A stretch of 64,000 nt of DNA, from NCBI GenBank assembly GCA_002347855.1, contig DDYE01000017.1, positions 271,685 through 335,684 on the forward strand, written 5' to 3'. This stretch comes from Fidelibacterota bacterium UBA2242 (GTDB lineage: Bacteria > Fidelibacterota > UBA2242). The notes beneath the pieces are model-generated. The model had not been told where the DNA came from. It did no database searches and saw only the letters and a list, made by a program, of their open reading frames with translations. Position numbers and translations under genes: made by a program. Below are positions 10,890 through 60,444 of this stretch, one piece after another; the first letter of the stretch is position 1; every line of letters starts with the position of its first letter.

Positions 10890-10967
10890 TATCGTTAGTT
10901 AAAGATACACTCCCTTTCAGGTATAATCATAGGAAATTGATTTAATTCTCTTAAATTTTCGCGGTAT

Positions 10968-12589: not shown

Positions 12590-12606
12590 TTGTTAGTGAA
12601 AGGAAT

Positions 12607-32966: not shown

Positions 32967-32977
32967 TAAACGGTGGG

Positions 32978-43474: not shown

Positions 43475-45477
43475 ATCTTAGCCTTCCATTTTATCTTCTC
43501 AAAGAGATGGGACCGAGATGGGTTTTCTATCGTGGTCTGTACTGGCTTTACCAGCGTACTAGGCTCCAGCAATTATTTTTTCCTGCACGCCAAATTAATT
43601 TTCAGCAGTACTCAAAACTACCGCTTGATTTTTCGAAGGAAGAGATAAAGTCATGTTTAAATTTCTGGCTTGGCAAGGTGGATGAACACGCTAATCTCAG
43701 GAGTTTTTATAACGATTATCCTGAAATTCAATCTCAAATTAAAAATCGCTATACTGCCCTGAAAGCCGGCCGCTTCACCTTTTTTTCAAAGTTAGAATTT
43801 GATTTGGGATTGCCACCGAATTGGTTTTTAAGCCCACAGACCTCCAAAACCAGTCAGGCGAATTGCCACTGGACAAAAATTCGTGACTTCGATGCAAGCC
43901 TTGGTGATATTAAATTCGTCTGGGAATTATCACGTTTTGCCTGGGTTTATGATCTTGTGCGATACTATGTATTGACGGAGGATGAAGAAGCAGTAGAACT
44001 GTTCTGGTACTTATTTGAAGATTGGATTACAAAGAATTTTCCGGAAAAAGGACCGCATTGGAAATGTGGTCAGGAAATTGCCATGCGCTCTTTAGCGGTT
44101 CTATTCGTACTCCAGCATACCTTTTATGCTAAAGCAACTACCCCGACAAGAATACGTCTGGCTGGGGGCTTCTTACGGTATAATGCCCAACATATTAAGC
44201 GCAACTTTTGGTATGCTAATCGCTCAATTAAAAATAATCATACGATTAGTGAAGCTGCCGGTTTATATCTCATCGGTAATTTCCTAAAGTATCTGAAGGA
44301 ATCTGCTCAATGGAGAAAAATCGGCAAGCGTACTTTAGAACGGGAAATTCAGCGTCAGGTTTATATTGACGGAACTTATTTGCAGCATTCGTTTAATTAC
44401 GAGCGTTTAGTTGTCCAGTGGCTATGTGTGTGTCTTACCGCAAATAAATGGGGTGCAGATGAATTTTCAAGAGAAATTACCCAACGGCTAAGAAGCATGG
44501 CCGAAACGCTTTATCAACTCCAGGATGAGCATAGTGGGCAACTGCCCAATTATGGTGCAAATGATGGAACGCTTTTGCAGCCGCTAACATCCTGCGACTA
44601 TTTAGATTACCGACCACAGCTGCAAGCTGCCTACTTTTTGACCACGCGACGCCGTCTATATGTACCGGGCATCTGGGACGAATTATTAATCTGGTTGCAG
44701 GGAGTGGTTCCGGAAGAAACTGCCCGTGATAAAATTCAGCGCATCACCTCTGCTTTTGAAATTGGAGGCTACTATATTCTACGATTAACTGAAGATGAAC
44801 CTCATTTTATGTTGCGGTGTGCTAATTATCATCACCGCCCTGGGCATGCTGACATGCTTCACCTGGATTTTTGGTACGGCGGAGTAAATGTCCTCACTGA
44901 CTCTGGTACCTTTTCTTACTTTCCAGCGGATGAGGCAAAAATGGGCTTTGTCGAGACTAAAGCCCATAACACCGTCTGGGTCGATGGACGCAGTCAGATG
45001 GATCACTGGGGTGCGTTTCTTTGGACAAAATGGACTAAATCCAAACTGGTGCGTTTTGTCAAAGAAACAGAGCAAATCAAATGGGAAGGCGAGGTTTATG
45101 ACCATCAAGGAATAATCCACAATCGCAGCCTAATTCTGCGAAATGGTTTATGTATTGTCCGTGATCGAATCGTCGGCAATTTTAATTTTGCTGAGATTAA
45201 TTGGAACGTTAATGCTCTCATTTTATCCCAAAATGATTATTGGCAAATTCAGATTGGCGATAGGTCGCTTTACATTCTTACTAATTATCAGTTAGAAGCC
45301 ATCCCAGGTGAAATTTCCCGCTATTATGGTCATCTGGAAAAAATCACTCGTTTGCATAGTAGACAAAAATCAAACCAAGAGAAGGTAATTTGGGTAACAT
45401 TATTAGCGTGGAGTAATGCGGAATCACCCTTAGAAATTGATAAATTAAGACGACAATATTTATTTCGTGAAAATTGA
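43471..45477 (+). CDS. Heparinase II/III-like protein (no signal peptide)
   Basis: ATGA overlap with the upstream gene. NNHTISEAAGLY, HHRPGHADMLHLDFWYGGVNVLTDSGTFSY and TKAHNTVWVDGRSQ match the Hepar_II_III C-terminal pattern. The tracked start at 43363 lies inside the upstream gene. Confidence 0.78.
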   Translation: MNLSLPFYLLKEMGPRWVFYRGLYWLYQRTRLQQLFFPARQINFQQYSKLPLDFSKEEIKSCLNFWLGKVDEHANLRSFYNDYPEIQSQIKNRYTALKAGRFTFFSKLEFDLGLPPNWFLSPQTSKTSQANCHWTKIRDFDASLGDIKFVWELSRFAWVYDLVRYYVLTEDEEAVELFWYLFEDWITKNFPEKGPHWKCGQEIAMRSLAVLFVLQHTFYAKATTPTRIRLAGGFLRYNAQHIKRNFWYANRSIKNNHTISEAAGLYLIGNFLKYLKESAQWRKIGKRTLEREIQRQVYIDGTYLQHSFNYERLVVQWLCVCLTANKWGADEFSREITQRLRSMAETLYQLQDEHSGQLPNYGANDGTLLQPLTSCDYLDYRPQLQAAYFLTTRRRLYVPGIWDELLIWLQGVVPEETARDKIQRITSAFEIGGYYILRLTEDEPHFMLRCANYHHRPGHADMLHLDFWYGGVNVLTDSGTFSYFPADEAKMGFVETKAHNTVWVDGRSQMDHWGAFLWTKWTKSKLVRFVKETEQIKWEGEVYDHQGIIHNRSLILRNGLCIVRDRIVGNFNFAEINWNVNALILSQNDYWQIQIGDRSLYILTNYQLEAIPGEISRYYGHLEKITRLHSRQKSNQEKVIWVTLLAWSNAESPLEIDKLRRQYLFREN

Positions 45478-45479
45478 TT

Positions 45480-46709
45480 ATGCGTGTTCTTTATATCCAC
45501 CAATATTTTAATACTCATCGTGAAGCCGGTGGGTCGCGCTCATATTCCTTAGCCAGAGCCCTCATAGCAAAAGGACATCAGGTTGTGATGTTAACTTCGA
45601 ATCGCAATAATCCTGACCTACCAGCGGTCTACTCCTGTCAGATTGATGGGATTGAAGTCGTATATGTTAAGAATCGCTATTCGAACAAGATGGGTTTTCT
45701 GCGGCGGATTTTATCCTTCTTACATTTTATGTTCATGTCTATTTTGGTGGCCTCACGAGTGCGCAATATTGATCTGGTTTTTGCTACTTCGACGCCCTTA
45801 ACAGTCGGTATACCAGGGATAATTTTTAAAAGGCTTTATAAGGTTCCTTTTGTCTTTGAAGTTCGTGATTTATGGCCTGAGTTAGCAATTGCCATGGGAA
45901 TAATTAAAAATCGAATAGTTATTAATGTAACCAGCTGGTTGGAAGCAAAAATTTATCAGGAATCTGACCATATTATCAGTTTAGCGCCGGGAATCACCAA
46001 GGGCATAATTGCTAAAAGCGTTCCGGCAGAAAAGGTGACTATGATTTCCAACGGCTGCGACCTGAATTTATTTAGAGCAGAGGTACACTCACAACCATCT
46101 AACTGGCAATTTCAGGAAGAAGATTTAGTTCTGGTTTATGCTGGCACTCATGGATTGGCGAATGGTTTACAATGGGTGATAGAGGTAGCCAAAGAAGCCA
46201 AACTGCGTCGCCAAATACGCATAAAATTTGTTTTGATTGGTGATGGTATGACTAAGCCTGATCTGATTAGACAAAAAGAGCAATTTGAATTAGACAATGT
46301 ATTTTTTCTCGATCCAATGCCTAAGCAACAATTAGTCGATTATTTAGCAGCAGCAGATATGGGTATGCAATTATTGGCAAATGTGCCTTCTTTTTATTAT
46401 GGTACATCACCCAATAAATTTTTTGATTATCTGGCGGCAGGAAAACCGGTTTTAAATAATTATCCCGGTTGGGTGGCAGACTTAATTCGTCAATGGCAAT
46501 GTGGGATTGTTGTCAGATCTGATGACTATGATGATTTTTTCAGGCAAATTGAGCCGTTAATTACTAATCGCCAATTATTGAAAGCGATGGGGGAGAGAGC
46601 GCGGAATTTGGCTTCTGCTCATTTTAGACGAGATGAGCTTGCTACGCGTTTTGTCCAGACTCTGGAGTGTACTTGTCGTGAATATCAGGAGAGGAGGACA
46701 GCTATTTAA
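45480..46709 (+). CDS. WbuB-like family 4 glycosyltransferase
   Basis: MRVLYIHQYFNTHREAGGSRSYSLARAL and FEVRDLWPE are typical of the WbuB/GT4 subfamily. ATG 45480 is preferred over TTG 45474. Confidence 0.8.
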   Translation: MRVLYIHQYFNTHREAGGSRSYSLARALIAKGHQVVMLTSNRNNPDLPAVYSCQIDGIEVVYVKNRYSNKMGFLRRILSFLHFMFMSILVASRVRNIDLVFATSTPLTVGIPGIIFKRLYKVPFVFEVRDLWPELAIAMGIIKNRIVINVTSWLEAKIYQESDHIISLAPGITKGIIAKSVPAEKVTMISNGCDLNLFRAEVHSQPSNWQFQEEDLVLVYAGTHGLANGLQWVIEVAKEAKLRRQIRIKFVLIGDGMTKPDLIRQKEQFELDNVFFLDPMPKQQLVDYLAAADMGMQLLANVPSFYYGTSPNKFFDYLAAGKPVLNNYPGWVADLIRQWQCGIVVRSDDYDDFFRQIEPLITNRQLLKAMGERARNLASAHFRRDELATRFVQTLECTCREYQERRTAI

Positions 46710-47374
46710 TGGCTTCCTTAAAAGACATTGTTATTGTTGGGGCTGGGGGACATGCCAAAGAAATTGCTTATTTAATCGAAGCGATCAATCTTGAAAAACC
46801 GACCTGGAATCTTTTAGGAATGATAGAACGGGATGCGCAGAACATCGGGAAACCATGCGGTAAATATAGTGTTATTGGCGATGACACCTTTTTCCAAAAG
46901 CGTTATGCTAACCTTAATGTAGTAGTCGCAATTGGGCAACCGCAGCGAGTCAAACAAATTTATACCAGTTTGCAGAATGAATATCCGGAATTGCTCTTCC
47001 CGAATTTAATATTTCCTACCGTCCAGCCTGGTTTGCGAGAGGTAGCGATGGGAATTGGTAACATCATTTGCGAAGGAAACATTTTTACGACGGATATTCA
47101 ACTTGGCTCATTTAATTGTCTTAATCGCGGGAATAATATCAGTCATGATGTTAAAATTGGGGATTTTGTGACGATAAATCCAGGAGTTAACATTTCCGGT
47201 GGGGTAGTAATTGAGTCGGAATGCCTGATTGGTACGGGCGCAACGATTTTGCAATATTTAACAATTGGGAGAGGAGCGGTCGTCGGTGCAGGGGCAGTCG
47301 TTACGAAAAATGTTTCCCCATCTACGACTGTAATTGGAGTTCCTGCTCAACCATTAAAGAGAAAAATTGTTTAA
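46709..47374 (+). CDS. NeuD/PglD/VioB-family sugar N-acetyltransferase (hexapeptide repeat)
   Basis: IVIVGAGGHAKEI forms the N-terminal Rossmann-like domain. The C-terminal left-handed beta-helix shows hexapeptide repeats (GDFVTINPGVNISGGVVIESECLIGTGA). Confidence 0.82.
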   Translation: MASLKDIVIVGAGGHAKEIAYLIEAINLEKPTWNLLGMIERDAQNIGKPCGKYSVIGDDTFFQKRYANLNVVVAIGQPQRVKQIYTSLQNEYPELLFPNLIFPTVQPGLREVAMGIGNIICEGNIFTTDIQLGSFNCLNRGNNISHDVKIGDFVTINPGVNISGGVVIESECLIGTGATILQYLTIGRGAVVGAGAVVTKNVSPSTTVIGVPAQPLKRKIV

Positions 47375-48364
47375 ATGGAGGTAGTATTGCGAGTCTTAAT
47401 TACGGGAGGTGCTGGGTATATAGGTTCAGTTTTGACCCGGCAACTTTTAGAAAAAGGATATCAAGTCCGTGTCTTGGATTGTCTGAATTATGGAGGCGAG
47501 TCAATCCTCGGTGTTTTAAGCAATCCGAATTTTGAGTTTTTACGGGGAGATATTCGCAGAAAAGCTGATGTCGCAGAAGCACTTCAGGATGTTGATGCGG
47601 TAGTGCATTTAGCGGCTATTGTGGGCGATCCGGCTTGTGCCAAACAACCACAATTAGCGCGTGAGACTAATCTTAATGCCTCACTGATGTTATATGAACT
47701 TTGCCAGAATCAATCAAGCGTGAAGCGTTTCGTTTTTGCATCCACTTGCAGTAATTATGGCAAGATGGAGGGTAGCGATTATATTGATGAGACAGCGCCG
47801 CTTAAACCGATTTCGCTTTATGCCGAATTGAAAGTAGCTTTTGAGCAGCATCTACTGAGTTCAAAAACTCGTGGCGATTTTATCCCGACCGCCTTGCGGT
47901 TTGCTACCGTTTACGGGATTTCGCCAAGGATGCGCTTTGACTTGACCGTGAATGAATTCACACGCGATGCCGCTCTGGGACGCGAGTTGGTGATTTACGG
48001 TGAGCAATTCTGGCGTCCTTATTGTCATGTAGAAGACCTGGCACGGGCGTGTGCTTTAATTCTGGAATCTCCTTGCGATAAAGTAGATCATGAGGTTTTT
48101 GGTGTCGGTGATAAATCGGAAAATTATCAGAAAAAGATGCTTGCCGAAGAAATTAAACGCATTTTACCGGAAACAAAAGTCAAGTATGTCCACAAAGATG
48201 AAGATCCGCGTGATTATCGAGTAGACTTTACCAAAATAAAAAAGCAATTAGGATTCTCAATAACCAAAACCGTTCCACAGGGAATTCGCGAAATTGTCTT
48301 TGTTATTCAGAATGGTATTTTGCACGATCCCTTCAATAAAATTTATTCAAATATCTCGGAGTAA
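47375..48364 (+). CDS. NAD-dependent sugar epimerase/dehydratase (extended SDR)
   Basis: VLITGGAGYIGS, STCSNYG, and the YxxxK motif YAELK. Confidence 0.8.
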   Translation: MEVVLRVLITGGAGYIGSVLTRQLLEKGYQVRVLDCLNYGGESILGVLSNPNFEFLRGDIRRKADVAEALQDVDAVVHLAAIVGDPACAKQPQLARETNLNASLMLYELCQNQSSVKRFVFASTCSNYGKMEGSDYIDETAPLKPISLYAELKVAFEQHLLSSKTRGDFIPTALRFATVYGISPRMRFDLTVNEFTRDAALGRELVIYGEQFWRPYCHVEDLARACALILESPCDKVDHEVFGVGDKSENYQKKMLAEEIKRILPETKVKYVHKDEDPRDYRVDFTKIKKQLGFSITKTVPQGIREIVFVIQNGILHDPFNKIYSNISE

Positions 48365-48366
48365 GT

Positions 48367-49527
48367 ATGATTCCACTTTCTGTCCCGCACATAGCTGGTA
48401 ACGAATGGCAGTATATCAAAGAATGCCTGGATACTGAATGGGTCTCTTCAGCCGGTAAATATGTCGATTTATTTGAACAACAGGTTGCTAAACTGGCCGG
48501 TTCCAAATTTGCGATCGCTTGCGTGAATGGCACTGCTGCTTTGCAAGTTGCTTTAGAAGTTGCCGGTCTAAAACCTGACGAAGAGGTAATAGTCCCAACT
48601 CTTACCTTCATCGCTTCCGTGAATGCAGTGCGTTATAACCGAGCTGAACCAATTTTTTTTGATTGCGATGACTATTACTGTCTTAATATTGATAAAATAA
48701 TCGAGTTCATTCGACAGGAAACTATTTTTAAACATGGTGCGAGTTTTAACCGTAAGACTGGTAAGCGGATAAGAGCCTTGGTAGCAGTCCACGTTTTTGG
48801 AAATGCGGTTAATCTGGAACCACTGTTGGAGCTTTGTCACGAGCGGGGCATCCTTGTAGTCGAAGATGCAGCTGAAAGTATTGGTACAGTTTATCGCGGG
48901 GGAAAGCTGGACGGCAAAGCCACTGGTGTCGTCGGTGACATTGGTTTTTATAGTTTCAATGGCAATAAAATTATCACGACTGGAGGCGGCGGGATGATTG
49001 TTACAAATAATTCCGAGTATGCCGAACGAGCCCGTTACCTGACGACTCAAGCCAAAGATGATGAGGTTCGCTATATTCACCATAACATTGGCTACAATTA
49101 TCGTTTGACCAATATCCAGGCGGCCTTAGGCGTTGCCCAACTCGAAAAATTAGGAGAGTATATCGAAAGAAAGCGCACGAATTATCAATATTTTAAACAG
49201 GCTATTGATCAAATTCCCGGTCTCCATCTGGCTGAAGTTCCACCCTATTGTGAACCCAATTATTGGTTCTATAATTTGCAAATTGATAAGGACATCTACG
49301 GGCGGGATAGAGAAGAATTATTGGCACTTTTTACCGCAGAAAAAATTCAGGTGCGACCAGTCTGGTATTTAAATCACTGGCAAAAGCCTTATGTAAAAAA
49401 TCAAACCTATAAAATCGAAAAAGCCATCCAACTATTCGAAAAAACTTTGAATATTCCCTGTTCCGTCAATTTAACCACAGAGCAACGCACTAAGGTTATT
49501 GAGGTGCTAAAAAATGGTCAACGCTAA
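48367..49527 (+). CDS. DegT/DnrJ/EryC1/StrS-family sugar aminotransferase
   Basis: ACVNGTAALQVAL, IVPTLTFIASVNA, FYSFNGNKIITTGGGGMI (PLP lysine region). Confidence 0.85.
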   Translation: MIPLSVPHIAGNEWQYIKECLDTEWVSSAGKYVDLFEQQVAKLAGSKFAIACVNGTAALQVALEVAGLKPDEEVIVPTLTFIASVNAVRYNRAEPIFFDCDDYYCLNIDKIIEFIRQETIFKHGASFNRKTGKRIRALVAVHVFGNAVNLEPLLELCHERGILVVEDAAESIGTVYRGGKLDGKATGVVGDIGFYSFNGNKIITTGGGGMIVTNNSEYAERARYLTTQAKDDEVRYIHHNIGYNYRLTNIQAALGVAQLEKLGEYIERKRTNYQYFKQAIDQIPGLHLAEVPPYCEPNYWFYNLQIDKDIYGRDREELLALFTAEKIQVRPVWYLNHWQKPYVKNQTYKIEKAIQLFEKTLNIPCSVNLTTEQRTKVIEVLKNGQR

Positions 49528-50206
49528 TCGTTATCTGCAACGGTTAATTAAATATTCCCTGGATAAACTATTATCTATACTGGGTTTATTAATCACCTCT
49601 CCAATCTTTGTTTTTGTTGCTCTCATTCTAAAACTAAAGGGGCAAGATGTTTTTTTTAAGCAAGCAAGAGTGGGAGAGGATGGCAAAGACTTTTGGGTTT
49701 TCAAGTTCACTACAATGCCCAAAGGTTCCGAAAAATTAGGTTTAATAACGACTAGCAACGACAGCAGACCATTTGCGTTTGGGAAATTTCTACGGAAGAC
49801 TAAAATCAATGAATTACCACAATTACTGAATGTTCTCAATGGCAGTATGAGTCTAGTCGGACCACGCCCACTGGTTCGTGAACAAATAGAAGAAGGACTG
49901 ACAGCTGCTGAGATTAAAGCCTTCTATCGGATGCGGCCTGGGATTACTGGCGCAGGCTCGCTCTATTTTCACCACGAAGACCGTTTATTAGCCAACGTTG
50001 CTGAACCGCATCGGTATTATCGAGAAGTGATTCTACCTCAAAAAAAATCCATCGAACAAGCCTACGCTGAGCATTGGAATCTCTGGCTTGATATAAAACT
50101 ATTGTGGTTGACGATATGGGTTGTAATTTTAGATTGGATTGGTAAAGAGGTGACCGATGTTCAATTGGATCTTTTTAAAGATATTAGGAAAGCAGATGAA
50201 AATTAG
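49514..50206 (+). CDS. Small monotopic phosphoglycosyl transferase (PglC/WecP-like sugar transferase)
   Basis: A single N-terminal re-entrant helix, then KFTTM, INELPQLLNVLNGSMSLVGPRP, RPGITG. 230 aa. Confidence 0.85.
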   Translation: MVNANRYLQRLIKYSLDKLLSILGLLITSPIFVFVALILKLKGQDVFFKQARVGEDGKDFWVFKFTTMPKGSEKLGLITTSNDSRPFAFGKFLRKTKINELPQLLNVLNGSMSLVGPRPLVREQIEEGLTAAEIKAFYRMRPGITGAGSLYFHHEDRLLANVAEPHRYYREVILPQKKSIEQAYAEHWNLWLDIKLLWLTIWVVILDWIGKEVTDVQLDLFKDIRKADEN

Positions 50207-50229
50207 CTATTTAGTATCTTAAGGTATAT

Positions 50230-51228
50230 ATGGGTTTCAAATTCCCCAAAATAATTGTATTAATAAGTCTTGTCGGACTTTCTGATTGCAATTTTAATCT
50301 ACCAACTAATCATAGTAACGGCAATTTTGACCTCCAGACTCTACCTCAGGAAATGCTTTTATATATCCCAACTTATGATGGTTCTAATCAAGCTACTCAT
50401 CCCGATGTCCTTTTTTTCCCAGAAGGGAGGAACGGTATTTACTTTTATTTAGTCATGACACCTTACCCCTGGAGCAATAACCGCTATGAGAATCCAAGCC
50501 TGTTATTCAGTCGCAATGGAGTGAATTTTTACGAACCAGTAACAGGTCTAAACCCTTTGGTGCCCCAGCCAACTTATGACCATAACAATGATCCCGACCT
50601 TATTTTCAATCCGCTTACCGAGGCATTCAATATTTTTTATCTCGAAACAATGCGTCCCGATTCGCAAAACACGGTTCTATTAACCAGTCCCGATGGTATT
50701 AAATGGAGAAAAAAAACCGCTGTCCATTATGATTTGAAAGCTGGTGACCCTTTTATTTTGTCCCCTGCTGTAATATTTGTCGATAGTTGTTTCTATATGT
50801 TTTATGTAAAAGCCCAGAGCACAACTCAAACTGAAATCAATTATATTACCAGCCCTGACGGTGAAAAATGGGAAAAAGATAGTGTTAATAGGGTATCGAC
50901 CAATTTTTCCGCCCAATTTGCACCCTGGCATCTGGATGTTTTTCGGGATGAAAATTATTTCTATATGTTATGTTGTGGACCCTATAAAGATTTGAATCTC
51001 TATTTAGGACAGTCAACCGATTTACAGAATTGGAAATTTTTAGAAGAGCCAATTATCAGAAGGTCAAAGAATTTTTACGACAGTGAAAGAATATACCGCA
51101 GTTCTGGTATTGTCCAGGATAATCTTTTGGTGGTTTATTTTTCACTCCGTACAAATTTGGGACAATGGAGAATCGGTTTGAAGAAATTTTCTTTGATGGA
51201 ACTTTTTAAAAATGATTTGCACCAATAA
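50230..51228 (+). CDS. Hypothetical secreted or lipoprotein, possibly beta-propeller glycosidase-like
   Basis: Signal peptide ending LVGLSDC, then ATHPDVLFFP...YFYLVMTPYPWSNNRYENPSLLFSRNG. No family was confidently recognised. Confidence 0.5.
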   Translation: MGFKFPKIIVLISLVGLSDCNFNLPTNHSNGNFDLQTLPQEMLLYIPTYDGSNQATHPDVLFFPEGRNGIYFYLVMTPYPWSNNRYENPSLLFSRNGVNFYEPVTGLNPLVPQPTYDHNNDPDLIFNPLTEAFNIFYLETMRPDSQNTVLLTSPDGIKWRKKTAVHYDLKAGDPFILSPAVIFVDSCFYMFYVKAQSTTQTEINYITSPDGEKWEKDSVNRVSTNFSAQFAPWHLDVFRDENYFYMLCCGPYKDLNLYLGQSTDLQNWKFLEEPIIRRSKNFYDSERIYRSSGIVQDNLLVVYFSLRTNLGQWRIGLKKFSLMELFKNDLHQ

Positions 51229-51393
51229 AAAGACTTGCAGTATAATCATAAAGCTTGTATATTAAATTAGTATGTGGAAAGATAGAGGTAAATAAAACGC
51301 ATTGATAGCCGTCATATCTATCTGAATTCACTTTACTGACATTACTTCCCAGATAACTAAAGCAGAGTGAATAACTAACAAGATCGCATAATC

Positions 51394-53979
51394 TTGGCAA
51401 AAAGTGTCATTTTAGCTGGAGGAATTATTGTGCTTAGTTGGCTGATTATGATTTTATTGATTACCTTTTTAGCGGCACTCTTTTTCACCCGAGTTGCCCG
51501 CTCGATTGCGCTCAAATATCACATCGGTGATATGCCCAATGCCCGCAAAGTGCATAAAACCTTTATGCCCTATCTAGGAGGAGCAGCCATACTCCTGGCG
51601 ATAATTCTCGGGACGATTTTGTCGGTATATATCTTACCTGACGTTGCTGGTCCTGTGCCAAGGCGTTACTATTTCTTAGGAATAACTGCGGTAGCTATTG
51701 CCTTGGTTGGGCTTTATGATGATTTAAAAAAATTACGCTTCACGACAAAATTTTACTGCCAGTTTATCGCTGCCATGGTAGTGATCGCGGGTGGTTTGCG
51801 CTTTACCTCTATTTATATTCCGTATATCGGTGATATTTACCTGGGGTGGAGCGGGTACATATTTACCCTGCTTTGGATAATATTTATTACCAATGCCATG
51901 AATTTATTGGATGGCTTGGACGGCTTGGCAGCTGGTGTCTCATCGATTATTTTTCTGACTTTTGCTATCATTGCGTTGCATAGTGGGCGAACACTGGTAG
52001 CGCTTGTCAATTTATTACTGATTGCTGCTAACTTAGGATTTTTGAAATATAACTACCATCCGGCTACTATTTTTATGGGAGACACGGGTTCCCTCTTCCT
52101 GGGATTTGCCACGGCGATTATTTCGCTGGAAATAGGACGCATTGGAGAAAGTGACCATCTGAATGTCATTCTTCCTTTGACTGTGATGGCGATGCCAGTA
52201 TTAGATACAACTATTGCTTTTTTCAGACGAGCCAGTAAACGCATGCATCCTTTTAAAGCCGATAAAGAGCATATTCATCATCGTCTAATGTCGATAGGAT
52301 TTTCGCATAAAAATGCTGTCAAGGTCATCTATTTTATTAGTGCCTGTACTGGTCTGATGGGACTTTCTTTCATCTTTTTGGACCGAAAGGGAATCATCAC
52401 TGCACTTTTCTGCGGATTGGTCTTCACGATGATACTAATACGTCGGCTGGGATATTTTGAAATTGAGAAGAATTTAATTGTCGTGCCCAATAGCAATGGT
52501 AATGGGAACAGTTCCACTAATGGATTATTAAATGGCAATGGTCACAAAGAGCAAAAATTTATTCCTTTCGATACTTCGCAATTTGTTCAGGCGGCGCTCT
52601 TTTTCTTGAGCGATGCAATCTTCTGTTGTTTAACCTTTCTACTGGTCTATTTCTATGAAATCAAGGTAATGCTGCCCTCTAACAGTGCTCTTGCGCCTTA
52701 TGATTTAAGCTTATGGATGGTTTGGTCGGTTTTGTACTGGAGCATTTTGCTTGGTTTAAATAATCTCTATCATATTGAATGGGACACCTCGCGCATTGAT
52801 GAAATCTTCTCAGTTTTTAAAATAGTCTTTTTCGGTACGGTAGTCCTCTTTTTCCTGAGTTTTGAAATAAAAATTCCCTTTCTCGTCTCTCGCCGCGTAT
52901 TTCTGCCTTATGGTATTCTATTAACGATTGGTCTCGGCCTCGGACGTATCCTGCTGATTTCCTTTTTAAAATCCAGAGAGATTTTAGAGTTCAAGAAAAG
53001 ACCGACTATTATTATTGGACTCTCCAATTCTGCTATGAATGTCGTTAAAAAAATCAACAATATGCCCGTTCTCAAATTTCAATTGGTTGGTTTTATTGAT
53101 GATAAAAACAATGGCAATGTCGGGCAGGTAATTCAAAATCTTCCCGTATTGGGCAATTACGCCGATATTCCGCAAGTGATTAAAAAATACAAAATCAAGG
53201 AAGTCATAATTGCTATTGATGACAACGACATCAATAAAGTCATGGATTTGATTGCCTGGTTCTGTCAATACAATGTTTCGATTAAATTAGTGCCAGATTT
53301 TTACAACCTGCTGACTGGTTTTAAAACTGCTCATATTTATGGTATTTCGCTGATAAAATTTTTTGACTCCAATATGAAAACCTGGGAATGGGTGCTCAAG
53401 CGTCTAATCGACATCATCATTTCCCTCATTGTGTTAATCGTATTTGCACCGTTCTGGCTGATTATCAGCATCATTATCAAACTGGATTCGCCTGGACCCG
53501 TCTTTTATCGTCAGAAACGGGTAGGCAAGAATCGTCAGGAATATGAATTAATCAAATTTCGCTCCATGGTTCAAAATGCTGAGGAATTGACCGGACCAAA
53601 ATGGGCGGAGAAAGATGATCCGCGGGTGACCCGTTTTGGGCGCTTTTTGCGTAAATATGGCTTGGATGAAATTCCGCAATTTTTCAATGTTCTGATTGGT
53701 GATATGAGCATTGTTGGTCCTCGTCCAGAGCGTCCCTTTTTCGTCAATGAGCTGGAGCATTCGATTCAATTTTATTCACGCCGCTTGATTGTCAAGCCTG
53801 GTATTACGGGTTGGGCTCAGATTAAATATAAGTACGATGAGACCATCGAAGATGTGCGTGAGAAATTACGCTATGATTTATATTATATTGAGAATATGTC
53901 GGTGCTGCTCGATTTAAAAATAATTGTTCGAACTCTATTGGTCGGTCTGCGCAAAAAGCATCATATTGCTTACGTCTAA
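51394..53979 (+). CDS. Fusion protein: WecA/MraY-type (GT4) phosphoglycosyl transferase plus full-length WbaP-type sugar transferase
   Basis: aa 1-350: [54 protein letters not shown]. aa 364-386: Asn/Gly linker. aa 390-861: TM bundle, Rossmann-like [10 protein letters not shown]...LVGFIDD...VIIAIDD, then [38 protein letters not shown]. The TTG start is uncertain; an ATG lies at 51448. Confidence 0.8.
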
Positions 53980-54025: not shown

Positions 54026-54080
54026 TTTTTCGGAAGGCTATTTATTATCCTATTTTGATTCCGAAAAAATTTTTATTTTA
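54026..54080 (+). terminator. AT-rich hairpin with T-rich tail between the polysaccharide locus and serS (possible terminator)
   Basis: TTTTTCGGAA (54026-54035) pairs with TTCCGAAAAA (54059-54068) across a 23-nt loop, followed by ATTTTTATTTT. Confidence 0.4.
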
Positions 54081-54102
54081 TGCCGTCAATCTTGGAGAAT
54101 TC

Positions 54103-55380
54103 ATGTTAGACTTGAAAGCTATACGTTCTGAACCTGAAAAATTCCTGCGGTTATTAGAAGCCAAAGGCGCTGCTGAGAACTTGAACCGGCTCCTCGACCT
54201 GGATTACCAGCGGCGTCAGTTAGTGACAAAAACCGATGAGTTAAAAAGTCTGCGCAATCGCGTAAGCGACGAGATAGCCCGGTTAAAAAGAGCGGGAGCA
54301 GCAGCTGAAGATAAAATTAAAGAAATGAAATCCGTCAGCCTGCAGATAAAAGAGCAGGATGAGCAAATCCGCTCACTTGAAGAGCAAATTCACCAGATAT
54401 TAATCACACTCCCCAATATACCCCACGCTTCTGTTAAAATAGGACGAAGCGCGGCTGACAACGAGGTGGTAAAAATCTGGGGAGAGGTGCCGACTTACGA
54501 TTTTCCACTTAAAGATCATCTCGATTTAGCGGAGAATCTTGGTATTATTGATTTCAAGCGGGCGGCGAAAATTTCGGGAACTGGTTTCCCGCTTTATGTC
54601 GGAGACGGGGCAGTTTTGGAGCGGGCGCTAGTAAATTTCATGCTGGATTTTCATCGTAAAAAACACGGCTACCGTGAAGTTTTTCCACCATTTCTGGTCA
54701 ATCGTGATTCTGCCTTCAGTACCGGTCAATTGCCTAAACTCGAAGAAGATATGTACTTGACCAGTGAAGATGACTTATTCTTAATTCCAACTGCCGAGGT
54801 TCCGGTCACCAATATTCATCGCGACGAAATCATACCTGAAAACAAGTTGCCAATCAAATATGTCGCCTATTCCGGCTGTTTCCGTCGGGAAGCTGGTTCT
54901 TATGGCAAAGAGACGCGCGGTCTTTCTCGGGTGCATCAATTTAATAAAGTCGAATTGGTCTGGTTCACGATCCCGGAAACATCCTATGACGTTCATGAGA
55001 AGTTACTGCAAGATGCTGAGGAAATTTTACAAGCATTAAATTTACACTATCGAGTTGTCTCACTGTGCTCGGGTGATTTGAGTTTTGCGGCAGCAAAATG
55101 CTATGATATTGAAGTCTGGGCGCCTGGGACAGGTAAATATTTTGAGGTTTCAAGCGTTAGTAACTTTGAGGATTTTCAGGCTCGACGGGCAAATATTCGT
55201 TACCGCCGCTCGGGCGATAATAGAGTTGGTTATGTGCATACCCTGAATGGTTCCGGAGTAGCAACACCCCGACTGATGATTGCCCTTTTGGAGACCTATC
55301 AGACTGACGAGGGAACAATCGTAGTTCCGGAAGCTCTGCAACCTTATACTGGTTTTAGTTTGATTAAAACTACGGTTTGA
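54103..55380 (+). CDS. serS: Seryl-tRNA synthetase
   Basis: MLDLKAIRSEPE and the coiled-coil arm, then GCFRREAGSYG (motif 2) and TLNGSGVATPR (motif 3). The tracked start at 54055 adds 16 unlikely residues. Confidence 0.95.
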   Translation: MLDLKAIRSEPEKFLRLLEAKGAAENLNRLLDLDYQRRQLVTKTDELKSLRNRVSDEIARLKRAGAAAEDKIKEMKSVSLQIKEQDEQIRSLEEQIHQILITLPNIPHASVKIGRSAADNEVVKIWGEVPTYDFPLKDHLDLAENLGIIDFKRAAKISGTGFPLYVGDGAVLERALVNFMLDFHRKKHGYREVFPPFLVNRDSAFSTGQLPKLEEDMYLTSEDDLFLIPTAEVPVTNIHRDEIIPENKLPIKYVAYSGCFRREAGSYGKETRGLSRVHQFNKVELVWFTIPETSYDVHEKLLQDAEEILQALNLHYRVVSLCSGDLSFAAAKCYDIEVWAPGTGKYFEVSSVSNFEDFQARRANIRYRRSGDNRVGYVHTLNGSGVATPRLMIALLETYQTDEGTIVVPEALQPYTGFSLIKTTV

Positions 55381-56039
55381 TGTCAATTCGCAATCAAAGG
55401 CAAATTCTTTGTGAGTATGGACATAAGATCTATGCTCATGGTTTTGTAGCGGCTAACGATGGTAACCTGAGTGTGCGACTTGACGACAAACGTATTTTGA
55501 TAACGCCGACCCTGCTCTCAAAGAGTGATTTACGACCGCGTGATTTGATCGTACTTGATTACGAAGGTAAGATAATTCGAGGCAAGGCACCCTCTTCCGA
55601 ATATCGTTTGCATCTGGCTATTTATCGTCAGCGTTCGGATGTTGGAGCGATAATTCATACTCATCCACCTTATGCAACAGCTTTTGCGGTCAGTGGAATG
55701 GAATTGCGAGAGTTATTTTTGCCGGAGATGATAGTGACGATTGGCAAGATTCCCCTGGTACCGTATGCGCCACCTTCCAGCCAGCAATTGGCGGATGCTG
55801 CCGCGCAATATATGATAGATTACGATGTCGTTCTGCTCCAGAACCATGGTTTGGTCGCAGTTGGCTCTAATCTTTCGGAAGCTTATGCTCGTACCGAGAG
55901 AAGTGAGCATTGCTTACAGATTTACTTTATAGCGCGAATAATGGGAAATATAAGGCAACTGACTGATGACGAGGTTGAGGAACTCTTAAATTTATATTCC
56001 GTTAATCCTCGGATTAGAAATCTTATACAGAAGAGGTAA
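55380..56039 (+). CDS. Class II aldolase/adducin-family protein
   Basis: AANDGNLSVR, SSEYRLHLAIY, IIHTHPPYATAF, LLQNHGLVAVG. The ATG shares 1 nt with the serS TGA stop. Confidence 0.82.
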   Translation: MSIRNQRQILCEYGHKIYAHGFVAANDGNLSVRLDDKRILITPTLLSKSDLRPRDLIVLDYEGKIIRGKAPSSEYRLHLAIYRQRSDVGAIIHTHPPYATAFAVSGMELRELFLPEMIVTIGKIPLVPYAPPSSQQLADAAAQYMIDYDVVLLQNHGLVAVGSNLSEAYARTERSEHCLQIYFIARIMGNIRQLTDDEVEELLNLYSVNPRIRNLIQKR

Positions 56040-56041
56040 GC

Positions 56042-56752
56042 ATGATTCGTAAATCCTGGGCTGTACTTGCTCTGGGCTCAACTGTGGCGCTTTATGGTGG
56101 AGTTAGTATTGCCTATCCTCCCGCTTATGACTATTTAGCACCGCGCTGGGCACGCCTATTATTAAAAATCTTACGAATTAAACTGCATATCCATGGACTT
56201 GAGTATCTCAAAGGTAATACGCCGGCTATTTTTGTGATGAATCACGAAAGTGCGCTTGATCCAGTTGCCGTTATGGCAGCACTGCCCGTCAGACATCGCT
56301 CCCTGGCAAAAAAGGAACTGTTCAATTTGCCAATCTTAGGATGGATAATGACTCTCGTGCGTCATATTCCAGTTGATCGCCAGAATCCGCGCCGGGCGGT
56401 AGATGTCATTAATCGGATAACTCACGAGGTCATTCAACGAAAAATAAGTTTGGTAGTAAGTCCAGAAGGTACACGCAGCCGTGATGGTCAGCTGGGACAG
56501 TTTAAAAAGGGTGCTTTTCGTCTGGCAGAACGCTATAATTTGCCCTTAATTCCGATTACAATTTTGGGCGCCGGTGAGTGTCTCCCAACCAAAACTCTGG
56601 AATTAAGACCGGGAATTATCGAGGTTTATCTCGGACAACCGATACATTTAAGTGACTTTCCCAGTATGACCGATTGTATCGAGTATATTCGTCAAAAAAT
56701 GATTGCCGCTAAGGCACATCATCTTGCAAGAAAGGGCGAGAAGGATGTTTAA
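56042..56752 (+). CDS. plsC: 1-acyl-sn-glycerol-3-phosphate acyltransferase
   Basis: VMNHESALDP (HxxxxD block), FKKGAF, and SPEGTRS. Confidence 0.88.
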   Translation: MIRKSWAVLALGSTVALYGGVSIAYPPAYDYLAPRWARLLLKILRIKLHIHGLEYLKGNTPAIFVMNHESALDPVAVMAALPVRHRSLAKKELFNLPILGWIMTLVRHIPVDRQNPRRAVDVINRITHEVIQRKISLVVSPEGTRSRDGQLGQFKKGAFRLAERYNLPLIPITILGAGECLPTKTLELRPGIIEVYLGQPIHLSDFPSMTDCIEYIRQKMIAAKAHHLARKGEKDV

Positions 56753-58097
56753 TTGCTATCTCTATCGGCTGGAAGAACCGGCTCCCCGCTTGAGACGTCC
56801 CGAGAAATTGCTCTATCTAAACTGGCTAAATCAAAATTTTCCGCAGAATAATCTAAAAACGACTAAAGGAATAGCCTTGAGCATTATCGCTCCCGGCAAG
56901 CGCAATGAACTCGAAGGTCCCGATTTTAAAGATGCTATGATTCTTTTGGGGGGTGAGATTTGCAAAGGTGATATTGAGATTCACTGGAAAAGCTCGGATT
57001 GGTACGCTCACGGTCACAGTCAGGATGACCTTTATAATAATGTAATTCTGCATGTCGTTGCTAACCATGATACTTCAGACATCAGGACGAAGAGTGGTAA
57101 AATATTGCCCACTTTTATCCTAACCCAGCTGGTCGAAATCCCGAGAAGCGAGCCACCCTGTCTAACCTGGCAAAATATTGCCGAGACAGAGGTCCACAAC
57201 GTCATCCAGAATTTGAATCGCCTACGCTGGCAACGCAAAAGTCAGAACTGGCAAAATGCCATCGAATGTAACGGCGCGGAAGAGGCTTTCTATCAAGGTT
57301 GGGTGGATGTCCTGGGTTATAGTCAAAATCGGCAAGCTTTTCGGCAATTCGCGCGGATTCTTCCCCTTGAAAAAATCTATTACCTGCTTGGAAGCACCAA
57401 CCGTGACCCTATCCCGCTGCTGGAAGCCGTTTTTTTTGGAACAGCCGGTTTCCTTGATGATAAACTGCCACCTAATCTCAACTGCGATTCGCTATATTTT
57501 CAAACCCTCACTAAGGATTGGCATCACTTTCAATCAGAATATGGATTACGATGCGCCCAGGATTTACCCTGGCATTTTGCCGGAACACGCCCGGCTAATT
57601 ATCCGCACAAACGCCTGGCAGCCTTAGCCCAATGCCTTGTCAAACTATTTCCAGCTTATCCCGGTCAGACGTTCATCAGCCAGATTAAAATGGCGCCAAA
57701 TTATCAACGCTTTTATGAGTGGACGGTCGATTTATTACAGCAACCGGAAGGGTTATGGAAGAATCATCCTCTATTTATTCACCAGCGCAGTCAGGTTCTG
57801 ATGGGTACGGAGAGATTGAACGATTTCTTGACAAACCTCGTTTTACCATATTGCCGAGCTATCGCCATTCTGGAAAAAGATTCCGCCCTCATGGAAAAGG
57901 CAGTCCTCTTTTCAGAACAGGTGGCGCTGGGAGAGTTACCGCAGACAATTCGCACTTTTTACACTCGACTGAAGATAGATCTGGCTTCTACTAAATGCAA
58001 CTGGATGGTTCAGGGTGCAATTGAATTCAATCAACGTTTCTGTGAATTAAATTTATGCAATTTATGTCCATTGGAAGCTTATGTTACCCACCAATAA
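56745..58097 (+). CDS. DUF2851-family protein
   Basis: GPDFKDAMILLGGEICKGDIEIHWKSSDWYAHGH...NVILHVV resembles the DUF2851 N-terminal pattern. The start is set at ATG 56745, overlapping the plsC end. Confidence 0.6.
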   Translation: MFNCYLYRLEEPAPRLRRPEKLLYLNWLNQNFPQNNLKTTKGIALSIIAPGKRNELEGPDFKDAMILLGGEICKGDIEIHWKSSDWYAHGHSQDDLYNNVILHVVANHDTSDIRTKSGKILPTFILTQLVEIPRSEPPCLTWQNIAETEVHNVIQNLNRLRWQRKSQNWQNAIECNGAEEAFYQGWVDVLGYSQNRQAFRQFARILPLEKIYYLLGSTNRDPIPLLEAVFFGTAGFLDDKLPPNLNCDSLYFQTLTKDWHHFQSEYGLRCAQDLPWHFAGTRPANYPHKRLAALAQCLVKLFPAYPGQTFISQIKMAPNYQRFYEWTVDLLQQPEGLWKNHPLFIHQRSQVLMGTERLNDFLTNLVLPYCRAIAILEKDSALMEKAVLFSEQVALGELPQTIRTFYTRLKIDLASTKCNWMVQGAIEFNQRFCELNLCNLCPLEAYVTHQ

Positions 58098-58563
58098 AAT
58101 AATTTCAAGAGAAGAAGCCCACCAGATTGCTGAACAGCTACATGAGGCAAAGCAGCCTATCGTATTTACTAATGGCTGCTTTGATTTATTACATCGTGGT
58201 CATATCGAATTGTTGCACTTTGCCAAAGAGCAGGGCAAGGTCTTATTCGTCGGGCTCAACTCAGATTCTTCGGTGCAGCGCTTAAAAGGCACCAGGCGTC
58301 CGATCAATTCTCAAGACGATCGTGCAGCAATTTTAGCAGCTATAGAATATGTTGACTATGTCGTCATTTTTTATGAAGATACACCTTTTGAACTAATTGC
58401 CGTTATCCAGCCTGATGTTTTAGTTAAAGGTGGTGATTATGAGCCGCATGAGATTGTAGGGCGCGATATAGTCGAAGGTCGTGGCGGTAAAGTCTTAGTT
58501 TTTCCCTTAATAAATGGTTTCTCTTCCACCCAGCTTTTAAAAAAATTAATGAATAATTTCTAA
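58081..58563 (+). CDS. Cytidylyltransferase-fold protein, D-glycero-beta-D-manno-heptose-1-phosphate adenylyltransferase-like (RfaE domain II)
   Basis: FTNGCFDLLHRGHIELL is the HxGH motif. Also contains GLNSDSSV and YVVIF. 160 aa. Confidence 0.8.
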   Translation: MLPTNKIISREEAHQIAEQLHEAKQPIVFTNGCFDLLHRGHIELLHFAKEQGKVLFVGLNSDSSVQRLKGTRRPINSQDDRAAILAAIEYVDYVVIFYEDTPFELIAVIQPDVLVKGGDYEPHEIVGRDIVEGRGGKVLVFPLINGFSSTQLLKKLMNNF

Positions 58564-58629
58564 AAACGCCTTGATTTTGTCGTCCAGAAAAGCTAATTTT
58601 AAAGACGAAAACCTTAGATTAGGAGTAGC

Positions 58630-60444
58630 ATGAAAATCTTGAAAATGACAAAATATCCTGCCATCTTTTGTTGCCTGATAATGATTGCAAATTATTCCTA
58701 CAGCCAGGTAAAGCCTACCTTAGATCTATCACCTCGAACAGCGCTTGCTAATGACAACAAAGAAGAAAATGGTAATGGCAATCAAGATATTTTTGATTTA
58801 CTCATCAGTGAAGCCAAAACTTTTTACGTGGATGCACTAATTTCTGCCTATTTTAAAGATACTTCCGAAGCAAAGTATTGCTTCGATCGCGTTTTTGAAA
58901 TTATTGCCGAAATTAGTGATTTAGATACATTGACATTGTTACAGCAGGATGATTTTAATCGCTTTTACGAAAAAGTCTCCAGCGATTTTCAGCAAAATTA
59001 CGCTTATTTGAATAGCGATTCGGGCACCTACGGCGCGGAACTGCTGCGGGAAGAGATTTTCGAGACGGTAATTGATTCCGTGGAAATTGGTAATGATACT
59101 TTGATTGTCTTAGATGACCGACCAGGGCATATCCCCCTGGTGCGCTCCCGCAAAATCGACCGTATTACCGATTTCATCTGCGGACGCGAATCGTGGCGTT
59201 TTCAGCAATACTTAGATAATAGCGGTTATTATCGGGATCATATTATGCCGATATTGGCACAGTACGGTTTGCCGGAGGAATTGTTTTACCTGCCGCTTAT
59301 TGAGAGCGGCTTTAATCCTAATGCCTATTCTTACGCCCATGCCGCCGGAATGTGGCAATTTATTGCGGGCACTGGAGCGCGTTATGGGTTAAAGCGTAAC
59401 TGGTGGATTGATGAAAGACGTGATCCTATCAAATCTACCCATGCGGCTGCCAAATATTTGAAAAAATTATACGAAGAATTCAATGACTGGTTTTTAGCTC
59501 TGGCGGCTTACAATGCAGGCGAACTTAGAATCTGGCGAGCAATTAAGCGCGAAGGAACACGGGATTACTGGAAATTGAAATCCTTGCCGCAACAAACGCG
59601 TGATTATGTTCCGACTTTCATGGCGAGTATGCTGGTTGCCAAAAATCCAGAAAAATATGGTTTTACTAATTCACCCAAAGATAAATGGGAGTGGGACGAG
59701 GTACCGGTTAGCAGTTCTTATGAATTTGACGCTATTGCCCGTGCCTGTGGGGTCAGCGTCGAGGAAATCCGACGCCTCAATCCGGAGCTACGCCGCTGGG
59801 TCACACCTCCCAATGAACCAAACTATATTCTGCGCGTCCCGGTCGGTAAGGGCGATAGCCTGATCGCAAAATTAAAGCAGCTTCCGCCTGCCATTGCGGA
59901 AAAGAGAACGGAATGGCTGACCCATAAGGTAAAAAAAGGGCAAACCCTTCACAGTATCTCCAATAAATATGGGGTCACTATATCGGCAATTGTAGCTGCC
60001 AATCACATTAAACGTCCCAGTCAGTTGCGAGTTGGTCAGATGCTTGTTATCCCCACCGATCGCTATTATGCTGCTCCCCGTACGAGTAGCGAAGATGTCG
60101 TTTTTACTCATACTGTCCAAAAGGGAGAATCACTCAGCTTAATTGCCAAAAAATATAATACCAGTGTTACCAAGATTCGTTCTCTCAACAATTTACAAGA
60201 TGATATTATCCAACCAGGGACTATCTTAAAAGTCAGGGGGACGAAGGCAGCCATCGAAGCCACTGCCTCGACCTCAAACGAGACGAAAAAAATAATCCAC
60301 ATTGTAGCAAAGGGGGAGACGCTTGGGGAGATTGCTGCTAAATACAATGTCAGTGTTAGTAATATACGGGCCTGGAATAATTTAGAAGGGCATATTATCT
60401 ACCCGAAACAAAAAATTATCATCTATCGTCCTGAATCTAGCTAA
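58630..60444 (+). CDS. MltD-like lytic transglycosylase with three C-terminal LysM domains
   Basis: SLT core LPLIESGFNPNAYSYAHAAGMWQF and AYNAG. Three LysM repeats: HKVKKGQTLHSISNKYGV, HTVQKGESLSLIAKKYNT, HIVAKGETLGEIAAKYNV. Confidence 0.88.
   Translation: MKILKMTKYPAIFCCLIMIANYSYSQVKPTLDLSPRTALANDNKEENGNGNQDIFDLLISEAKTFYVDALISAYFKDTSEAKYCFDRVFEIIAEISDLDTLTLLQQDDFNRFYEKVSSDFQQNYAYLNSDSGTYGAELLREEIFETVIDSVEIGNDTLIVLDDRPGHIPLVRSRKIDRITDFICGRESWRFQQYLDNSGYYRDHIMPILAQYGLPEELFYLPLIESGFNPNAYSYAHAAGMWQFIAGTGARYGLKRNWWIDERRDPIKSTHAAAKYLKKLYEEFNDWFLALAAYNAGELRIWRAIKREGTRDYWKLKSLPQQTRDYVPTFMASMLVAKNPEKYGFTNSPKDKWEWDEVPVSSSYEFDAIARACGVSVEEIRRLNPELRRWVTPPNEPNYILRVPVGKGDSLIAKLKQLPPAIAEKRTEWLTHKVKKGQTLHSISNKYGVTISAIVAANHIKRPSQLRVGQMLVIPTDRYYAAPRTSSEDVVFTHTVQKGESLSLIAKKYNTSVTKIRSLNNLQDDIIQPGTILKVRGTKAAIEATASTSNETKKIIHIVAKGETLGEIAAKYNVSVSNIRAWNNLEGHIIYPKQKIIIYRPESS

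Follow-up and report, generated by a model that had tools for sequence, protein, structure and literature searches.

The 64,000-nucleotide stretch of contig DDYE01000017.1 from the Fidelibacterota bacterium UBA2242 (GCA_002347855.1, positions 271,685 to 335,684 of the forward strand; hereafter the window) was found to carry a gene in which a polytopic phosphoglycosyl transferase (PGT) of the WecA/MraY type is joined, through a flexible linker, to a structurally unrelated large monotopic PGT of the WbaP type. With somewhat better than even confidence, the gene is taken to encode a bifunctional, dual-specificity initiating PGT. This reading builds on the domain architecture, the intact catalytic residues, the predicted structure and topology of the chain and the conservation of the fusion.

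Two phosphoglycosyl transferases on one chain

One unbroken open reading frame (ORF) of 861 codons, counted from a TTG, occupies positions 51394..53979 (+), as an earlier reading made from the sequence only had described. The true start is likely the GTG at 51430, which gives a protein of 849 amino acids (aa); the database protein P0001 has 849 aa and is 100% identical to the fusion protein, the gene calls for the fusion on other contigs begin 36 nt downstream of TTG 51394, and a Shine-Dalgarno-like sequence stands before the GTG. With the GTG as the start, 201 bp separate the gene from the end of the upstream ORF at 51228, instead of the 165 bp given by the sequence-only reading. Residue numbering throughout counts from TTG 51394 (861-aa version).

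The Pfam scan returned exactly the three families that had been predicted for the chain, namely Glycos_transf_4 (PF00953) at aa 95-246 (1.6e-40, 139 bits against a cut-off of 27), CoA_binding_3 (PF13727) at aa 458-634 (2e-17, 64 bits) and Bac_transf (PF02397) at aa 669-851 (4e-70, 235 bits). The NCBIfam model TIGR03025 aligned to aa 406-855 over profile positions 2-442 of 445 with 438.5 bits (cut-off 295.6), and because this match is above the cut-off and nearly end to end, the C-terminal half is a full-length large monotopic PGT. In the features below, TM stands for transmembrane and DUF for domain of unknown function.

51418..51422 (+): Shine-Dalgarno-like GGAGG, read directly from the sequence, with a 7-nt spacer to GTG 51430
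51430..53979 (+): fusion gene, 849 aa from GTG; polytopic PGT, linker and large monotopic PGT
51430..52449 (+): polytopic PGT half, WecA/TagO-like, ~11 TM helices (PF00953, motifs, Foldseek match to MraY)
52450..52590 (+): cytoplasmic linker, aa 353-399, with a disordered Asn/Gly-rich core at aa 360-386 (nt 52471-52551)
52591..52977 (+): four-helix TM bundle of the large monotopic PGT, aa 400-528 (model helices, hydropathy, TIGR03025 from aa 406)
52978..53373 (+): Rossmann-like DUF (CoA_binding_3, PF13727; Pfam 2e-17), ending in a beta-hairpin at aa ~645-656
53374..53976 (+): monotopic PGT catalytic domain (PF02397, 4e-70; alignment to solved WbaP; PglC TM-score 0.82)

The Asn/Gly run of the linker covers aa 366-384 (nt 52489-52545); its presence had been noted correctly, and the span given for it, 52483-52551, was a few bases too wide on each side.

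All the motifs quoted in the sequence-only reading were located in the ORF by a motif search. In the polytopic half these are YDDLKK (108-113), an NxxNxxDGxDG-type segment (167-178), FMGDTGS (227-233) and HIHHRL (293-298), with the catalytic residues D109 and D110, N167, N170, D173 and D176, D230, and H293, H295, H296 and R297. The monotopic half contains KFRSM (721-725), GLDEIPQ (756-762) and VGPRPE (774-779), and residues K721, R723 and R753, the dyad D758-E759 and VGPRPE align to KFRSM, LDELPQ and VGPRP of solved WbaP. The polytopic motifs were invariant in 113 of 113 fused proteins, and no member of the query clade, the query included, has lost any of the monotopic residues K721, R723 and R753, the Asp758-Glu759 dyad or VGPRPE. 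A loss of catalytic residues from one half on proper alignment, which had been considered beforehand, was not found; judged by its residues, neither half of the query protein appears degenerate, and both are predicted to be active. In the clades with both halves live the monotopic catalytic domain was the most conserved region (mean pairwise identity 79.9% and 73.5%), the polytopic half having mean identities of 67.1% and 59.4%. With conservation highest in the monotopic domain and no variation in the polytopic motifs, both halves are under strong constraint in the query lineage.

The AlphaFold2 model of the 861-aa chain, built on 74 homologues, had a mean predicted local distance difference test score (pLDDT) of 82.5 and a predicted template modelling score (pTM) of 0.81. 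The pLDDT was mostly above 90 in the polytopic half and below 50 in the linker at aa 360-386, the sole internal segment predicted to be disordered. The best match in a Foldseek search against the PDB was WbaP (8T53); many MraY structures were also retrieved (E ~1e-11, TM-score normalised to the target 0.69-0.79), together with PglC (TM-score 0.82) and DPAGT1. Thus, the predicted fold matches both solved MraY and solved WbaP/PglC and supports the presence of both PGT types in one chain. Profiles, conserved residues and predicted structure agree with the core claim of the sequence-only reading, that one polypeptide holds complete enzymes of both the WecA/MraY and the WbaP type. The model helices of the four-helix bundle extend over aa 394-426, 435-455, 467-491 and 500-528, the strands of the DUF beta-hairpin over 645-647 and 654-656, and the re-entrant helix-break-helix over 663-683/685-698 with the break at the conserved P686. 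As the larger module makes up only ~55% of the chain and pTM reaches 0.81, the two modules appear to be placed confidently relative to each other.

Hydropathy and the model gave the N-terminal half ~11 TM helices in an N-out/C-in arrangement, one helix missed by the scan being added by reading. The K/R-rich loops with the DD, NxxDGxDG, MGD and HIHH motifs were all on one membrane face. With two TM helices after the HIHH loop, the N-terminal half ends in the cytoplasm, as the polytopic chain likewise does in the published topology of WecA, and the linker is therefore cytoplasmic. After the four-helix bundle the chain is again on the cytoplasmic side, where the DUF and the re-entrant-helix catalytic domain are placed, an extra helix being unnecessary. 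Both active sites are thereby predicted to face the cytoplasm, the arrangement that had been put forward for checking.

Conservation of the fusion and relatives with one silenced half

The homologue set comprised the 120 best matches in a collection of 5.8 billion proteins, with full length defined as at least 780 aa. The three-domain architecture was present in all of the full-length homologues (112/112), whose identity to the query ran from 96% down to 35% and whose source labels were Marinimicrobia/Neomarinimicrobiota, Ignavibacteriae, Bacteroidota and Calditrichota including Caldithrix abyssi. Public databases label the family 'exopolysaccharide biosynthesis polyprenyl glycosylphosphotransferase'. 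As judged from these sequences, the fusion represents a large conserved family in Marinimicrobia and related phyla, widespread and annotated. The sequence-only reading had allowed for an architecture that would prove common and already characterised; the family is indeed conserved and not rare, but a biochemical characterisation of a polytopic-monotopic PGT fusion was not found in the literature covered by a full-text search. A network analysis by O'Toole, Imperiali and Allen (PNAS 2021) reportedly mentions unexpected fusions of monotopic and polytopic PGTs in its abstract, which may correspond to the present family; an earlier mention in print of the fusion itself is probable.

An artefact, in which two ordinary neighbouring genes would have been joined because a stop codon or a frameshift went unnoticed in the low-complexity linker, is hardly credible. 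The Asn/Gly linker is a run in which errors might hide, and a Bacillota metagenome-assembled genome (MAG) carries both genes separately, but gene calls on 18 contigs, which stem from several sequencing runs, gave the identical protein of 849 aa, and the 112 full-length homologues, at 35-96% identity, all have one ORF despite differing linker length and sequence. With more than 100 homologues sharing the same fusion, the alternative of a frameshift or missed stop raised in the sequence-only reading is excluded. The linker was the least conserved part of the protein, with 23-51 aa among homologues, and its Asn/Gly-rich composition was confined to the close relatives of the query. Pairwise distances calculated for the N- and C-terminal halves of 118 fused proteins correlated with r = 0.93, and by virtue of this correlation the data are consistent with one old fusion inherited vertically.

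The Bacillota MAG (L010) has an unfused polytopic PGT gene at 9983-11056 (357 aa) that adjoins a gene for a large monotopic PGT at 11334-12680 (448 aa). The pair, found among the matches listed, is co-oriented, follows the same order as the fusion and has an intact monotopic dyad; its neighbours are a GT2 gene and one that looks LytR-CpsA-Psr-like on reading by eye. From its sequence, the pair appears to be the separate-gene counterpart of the fusion.

Relatives in which one or the other half has been silenced were found in different lineages. In 24 proteins, consisting of one 21-member clade and three further cluster representatives, the Asp-Glu dyad of the monotopic half is replaced by Tyr-Lys; these proteins are also without K721 and nearly always without R723 and R753, and they keep all polytopic motifs. 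Of the 21 clade members, 3 are labelled Calditrichota/Caldithrix. The silenced monotopic domain of this clade is full length, and 43 of its 195 positions are invariant, the new Tyr-Lys included. The reverse was seen in P0219, P0269, P0270 and P0271, where NxxNxxDGxDG, MGD and HIHH are missing and DD is also gone in the three of three that cover the region, and where the monotopic half is fully intact and 55-63% identical to the query. One of these four proteins is labelled Marinimicrobia. The gene for P0269 occurs in the same synteny with serS as the query fusion gene and is therefore orthologous to it; in this Marinimicrobia sub-lineage the motif-less polytopic half remains TM-rich and of similar length. 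In a third form, seen among the matches listed in Fibrobacterales, Omnitrophota, Acidobacteriota and Desulfobacterota, ORFs comprising polytopic PGT, four-helix TM bundle and DUF stop before any Bac_transf domain. Complete ORFs of this form, of 597-647 aa, are located at 9956-11899 in L014, 2583-4376 in L080, 9962-11758 in L085 and 2300-4138 in L086, from Fibrobacterales, Omnitrophota, Pyrinomonadaceae and Desulfobacteraceae. Of the four, L014 is the one in which the polytopic motifs were read, and they are intact.

Because either site has been lost in different lineages, the two catalytic activities are separable, neither needing the chemistry of the other, and because the fused architecture is kept even where one site is dead, the partner half has structural or regulatory value. 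These losses bear on two further explanations of the fusion. According to the first, the sites are an obligatory pair, acting sequentially on one lipid-linked intermediate or exchanging sugars on undecaprenyl diphosphate, in the latter case through reversible PGT reactions with UMP (uridine monophosphate) and undecaprenyl phosphate (Und-P) handed between sites. Und-P and UMP are indeed common to the reactions of WecA/MraY and WbaP, which can in principle run in both directions, the high pTM suggests a fixed relative geometry, and the halves have co-evolved (r = 0.93). We know of no precedent for a coupled PGT pair, and reciprocal loss of either site with the gene position kept indicates that neither site needs catalysis by the other. 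In the WbaP dimer, moreover, the catalytic domains are directed outwards from the core (PMC10942596). Such coupled chemistry is accordingly rated very improbable.

According to the second explanation, only one half is used as an enzyme, and the other is a membrane scaffold, a dimerisation partner or an allosteric module sensing UMP or Und-P. This would account for the retention of the full-length monotopic domain with its 43 invariant positions in the Tyr-Lys clade, of the TM-rich half in the serS-linked Marinimicrobia sub-lineage that has lost all polytopic motifs, and of polytopic PGT, bundle and DUF in the four groups with ORFs that have no monotopic domain; the DUF is, in addition, a proposed regulatory domain (PMC10942596). 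Dead halves elsewhere show visible motif decay, but none is seen in the query, and the query and all 41 members of its clade retain every catalytic residue of both halves, the monotopic catalytic domain being the most conserved region and the polytopic motifs invariant. A single activity is for these reasons considered unlikely for the query, while being the more serious of the two explanations. A half acting as scaffold or regulator, one of the roles listed in the sequence-only reading, is thus true of sister lineages and apparently not of the query gene, in which the motifs are intact.

It is possible, though we regard it as tentative, that the family as a whole is a series of reciprocal pseudo-enzymes, in which two unrelated PGT folds have shared one membrane assembly for so long that either can be silenced and yet held by purifying selection, with the live/live form as the ancestral hub. 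This idea comes from the conservation of Tyr-Lys itself, the dead polytopic half kept beside serS and the retention, in some phyla, of just the four-helix bundle and DUF behind a polytopic PGT. If it is true, the partner fold has an essential non-catalytic role, which could be dimerisation, sensing of UMP or Und-P, or recruitment of a partner composed of GT2 and a 'dead' large PGT (described below), and the live/live form in the window would be an ancestral hub splitting Und-P between two glycan pathways. Possibly new are the reciprocal pseudo-enzyme pattern, the truncated forms ending in the DUF and the core position anchored at serS.

Other partners were seen on close relatives of the polytopic half. 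P0139, P0240, P0192 and P0123 carry a GFO_IDH_MocA oxidoreductase, a GT4, a response-regulator receiver domain or, in tandem, another polytopic PGT, and in ~50 of 150 representatives of the polytopic relatives the C-terminus is prolonged by ~150 aa that are soluble and unannotated. There seems to be a hot spot for fusions at the cytoplasmic C-terminus of this polytopic subfamily. The polytopic relatives of ~500 aa were considered as a polytopic PGT plus the four-helix bundle and rejected; in most of them the C-terminal extension is soluble and has no extra TM helices, so that they form a different class.

A gene for a protein of 667-709 aa adjoins the fusion in four Calditrichota loci and lies two genes downstream of it in a clade of 40% identity (L003 12469-14553; L006 12450-14534; L004 14445-16496; L005 14462-16465; L007 12442-14541; L008 8587-10716). 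In L003-L006 the product consists of GT2, CoA_binding_3 and Bac_transf by Pfam, and the KFRSM...DE segment of Bac_transf is deleted; this deletion was established for four partner proteins, two of them encoded in Calditrichota loci and two in loci of the 40%-identity clade. In L007 and L008 the partners were identified only from their length and their C-terminal motif. Owing to the deletion, the neighbour was rejected as a supplier of the live monotopic site in Calditrichota. The partner genes suggest 'dead' large-PGT modules that may serve as scaffolds, possibly heterodimerising with the fusion protein. No GT2-type partner was found when it was looked for in the window and three further Marinimicrobia-type loci.

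Genomic setting

The fusion gene is situated between a polysaccharide locus and a block of core genes, as listed here together with two candidate promoters.

31644..51228 (+): variable Wzx/Wzy-type polysaccharide locus upstream of the fusion, by Pfam content
51217-51246 (+): overlapping alternative promoter candidate TTGCAC-18-TATAAT
51235..51263 (+): candidate sigma-70-like promoter TTGCAG-17-TATATT in the conserved intergenic block AAAAAGACTTG...
54055..60444 (+): conserved downstream core genes serS, aldolase_II, acyltransferase, DUF2851, 160-aa ORF and SLT/LysM

The downstream gene order is common to L001, L091, L092 and L093 and is partly found in the Calditrichota loci L006 and L007; the 160-aa ORF occupies the slot of a CTP_transf_like gene in the relatives. 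The fusion was seen in synteny with serS in four more contexts of the Marinimicrobia type and also in Calditrichota. The upstream content at this position differs or is absent in relatives: P0038 is preceded by the housekeeping genes metG-tatD-ksgA, P0010 by a different Wzx/Wzy locus without another PGT, and P0270 by a small Wza-Wzz-Wzy-Wzx-sulfotransferase-GT2 locus, again without another PGT. In the 3.4 kb downstream of the P0270 gene serS was not seen. Given a conserved downstream block and a changing upstream side, the Marinimicrobia fusion is a core gene upstream of serS that marks the fixed 3' border of a variable glycan locus, and in at least two relatives (P0010 and P0270) it is the only candidate initiator of the adjoining locus.

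In the window, the upstream locus contains genes for UDP-Glc dehydrogenase, an epimerase, Wza, a Wzz-like protein, Wzx, GT2, DUF6337, GT4, an oxidoreductase, a heparinase II/III-like protein, GT4, a PglD-like acetyltransferase, an epimerase, a DegT aminotransferase, an atypical small Bac_transf protein (49514..50206) and a GH32-like protein. This locus is likely the client pathway of the fusion enzyme. The small Bac_transf protein (+) has KFTTM and INELPQ, with Asn-Glu replacing the Asp-Glu dyad, and in a protein alignment its Asn is at least 90% conserved among 23 homologues of 41-78% identity. It thus appears to belong to a conserved subfamily without the canonical nucleophile and is regarded only as a putative PGT.

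The sequence-only reading had proposed that the fusion gene may have its own promoter. The block at 51235..51263 aligns with TTGACC-17-TACATT upstream of the P0010 orthologue on L091, which is 70% identical and has different upstream genes, but a generic promoter/terminator scan of the region returned nothing above shuffled expectation and did not pick up the candidate. Conservation in two genomes lends weak support to a possible promoter of its own. The conserved block, TAAAAAGACTTG ... GTAyATT ... TGnGnAAAGA, was read from 51195..51300 of the window and 9760..9870 of L091; it sits ~170-200 nt upstream of the fusion gene, and the leader would be ~165 nt long if the promoter is used.

Some further observations concern the upstream genes. 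An ADH_zinc_N/GFO_IDH_MocA oxidoreductase (~710 aa), a heparinase II/III-like protein and a GT4 are encoded in the same order at 41348..46709 in the window and at 1-7584 in L003, upstream of the fusion in both; the set is contiguous in the window and has three small ORFs interspersed in Calditrichota GD2, which hints at a shared sugar-modification cassette. The heparinase II/III-like ORF (43363..45477, TTG start) overlaps the preceding oxidoreductase ORF (41348..43474) by 112 nt, and its real start is probably further downstream. The DUF6337 protein (38968..40248, +) is in the slot expected for a Wzy polymerase, after Wzx and GT2, and unannotated proteins of ~420-440 aa fill a comparable slot near Wzx in L091, L004 and L005. 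The 707-aa ORF at 29360..31483 (+), between tsaD and the polysaccharide locus, had no Pfam match at E <= 1e-4.

Proposed activity, known systems and significance

The polytopic half resembles WecA/TagO in its fold (MraY TM-score 0.69-0.79), its ~11 TM helices, its N-out/C-in topology and the presence of DD, NxxNxxDGxDG, MGD and HIHH. Among the matches listed, it is 39-42% identical to polytopic PGT genes of Bacillota from unannotated loci, which are presumably of the TagO/WecA type. TIGR02380 (WecA) is the best polytopic model for this half, and the HIHH 'GlcNAc-type' motif (GlcNAc, N-acetylglucosamine) is present, though the score of 146 bits is below the cut-off of 326, so that the protein is not an orthologue of enterobacterial WecA; it differs from WecA/TagO also by the additional C-terminal large-PGT module of 500 aa. 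The monotopic half shares with WbaP, WcaJ and CpsE the four-helix bundle, the DUF with its hairpin, the re-entrant helix, the Asp-Glu dyad, the K/R residues and VGPRP. It scored 229 bits on TIGR03022 (WbaP; cut-off 403) and, in a near miss, 401.4 bits on TIGR03023 (WcaJ; cut-off 410.75), and unlike in WbaP and WcaJ its N-terminus is not free and continues from the polytopic PGT.

Proteins in which a monotopic PGT is fused to an acetyltransferase, a glycosyltransferase or similar have been defined as the Bi-PGT class (PMC11626204, PMC10942596). The query protein likewise has a second pathway enzyme fused to a monotopic PGT core, a second catalytic domain that is conserved in the 112 full-length homologues, and as a whole it fits this bifunctional class, activity of both domains being predicted. 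It differs in that the partner is a second initiating enzyme and not a downstream or sugar-modifying one, and in that the monotopic PGT is of the large and not the small type. PglF-like UDP-sugar dehydratases share the four-helix bundle and DUF with large PGTs (PMC10942596), and this module is thus portable between catalytic domains. In the present family it is attached to a polytopic PGT, whether or not a live monotopic domain follows; PglF-like dehydratases have another catalytic partner and no PGT activity.

In the cryo-EM structure of S. enterica WbaP, the homodimer is held mainly by a swap of the DUF beta-hairpin; WbaP is strongly inhibited by UMP, and as all PGTs release UMP, the DUF has been proposed as a 'one-size-fits-all' UMP sensor (PMC10942596). 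The DUF of the fusion may by analogy be a dimerisation and putative UMP-sensing domain, as in large PGTs. With the WbaP-type hairpin in the query and the proposal made for the WbaP DUF, the protein can be pictured as a dimeric, UMP-regulated initiator. Its polytopic half would transfer N-acetylhexosamine (HexNAc) 1-phosphate, most likely GlcNAc-1-P from UDP-GlcNAc, to Und-P by the Mg2+-dependent direct-attack mechanism of MraY/WecA, giving Und-PP-HexNAc, and its monotopic half would transfer hexose 1-phosphate of the Glc or Gal type through a covalent phospho-sugar intermediate on Asp758, giving Und-PP-hexose. Each priming reaction would release UMP, and both sites would share one Und-P pool. 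The shared four-helix bundle and DUF would dimerise the protein through the DUF beta-hairpin, and the DUF, if it senses UMP as proposed for WbaP, may throttle both priming reactions together. The fusion would in this way offer two alternative priming sugars to whichever glycosyltransferase cassette lies upstream, and cassettes of either acceptor preference could work without an initiator of their own.

A bifunctional initiator agrees with the position of the P0010 and P0270 genes at the 3' end of Wzx/Wzy loci, which links the enzyme to a client, and with the adjacent, identically ordered and unfused genes of the Bacillota MAG, which link the two enzyme types functionally. Several points weigh against it. 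The activity of family members is predicted from sequence and model, the sugar specificities are suggested by family scores below threshold, and the packing of the modules against each other is drawn solely from pTM. The locus in the window has the small Bac_transf protein with its atypical Asn-Glu, which might be the initiator. Sister lineages have silenced one half, with Tyr-Lys in 24 proteins and the polytopic motifs gone in four; the architecture can therefore do without a second live activity, and motifs that are intact in the query are no proof of activity.

For annotation, the label 'exopolysaccharide biosynthesis polyprenyl glycosylphosphotransferase' on proteins of ~850 aa hides a second predicted activity and, in some lineages, hides the loss of the activity it names. 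The organisms are uncultured or environmental, which limits the practical impact. Two open questions are touched, namely how the scarce Und-P carrier is divided among competing glycan pathways and why two unrelated superfamilies evolved for the same priming reaction. A protein with one enzyme of each kind and a shared, putatively UMP-sensing and dimerising module is a ready system for testing cross-regulation, and its natural relatives with either site dead are controls supplied by evolution. The interest of the family lies in its use as an experimental system for the partitioning of Und-P and for what accessory and partner domains of PGTs do beyond catalysis.

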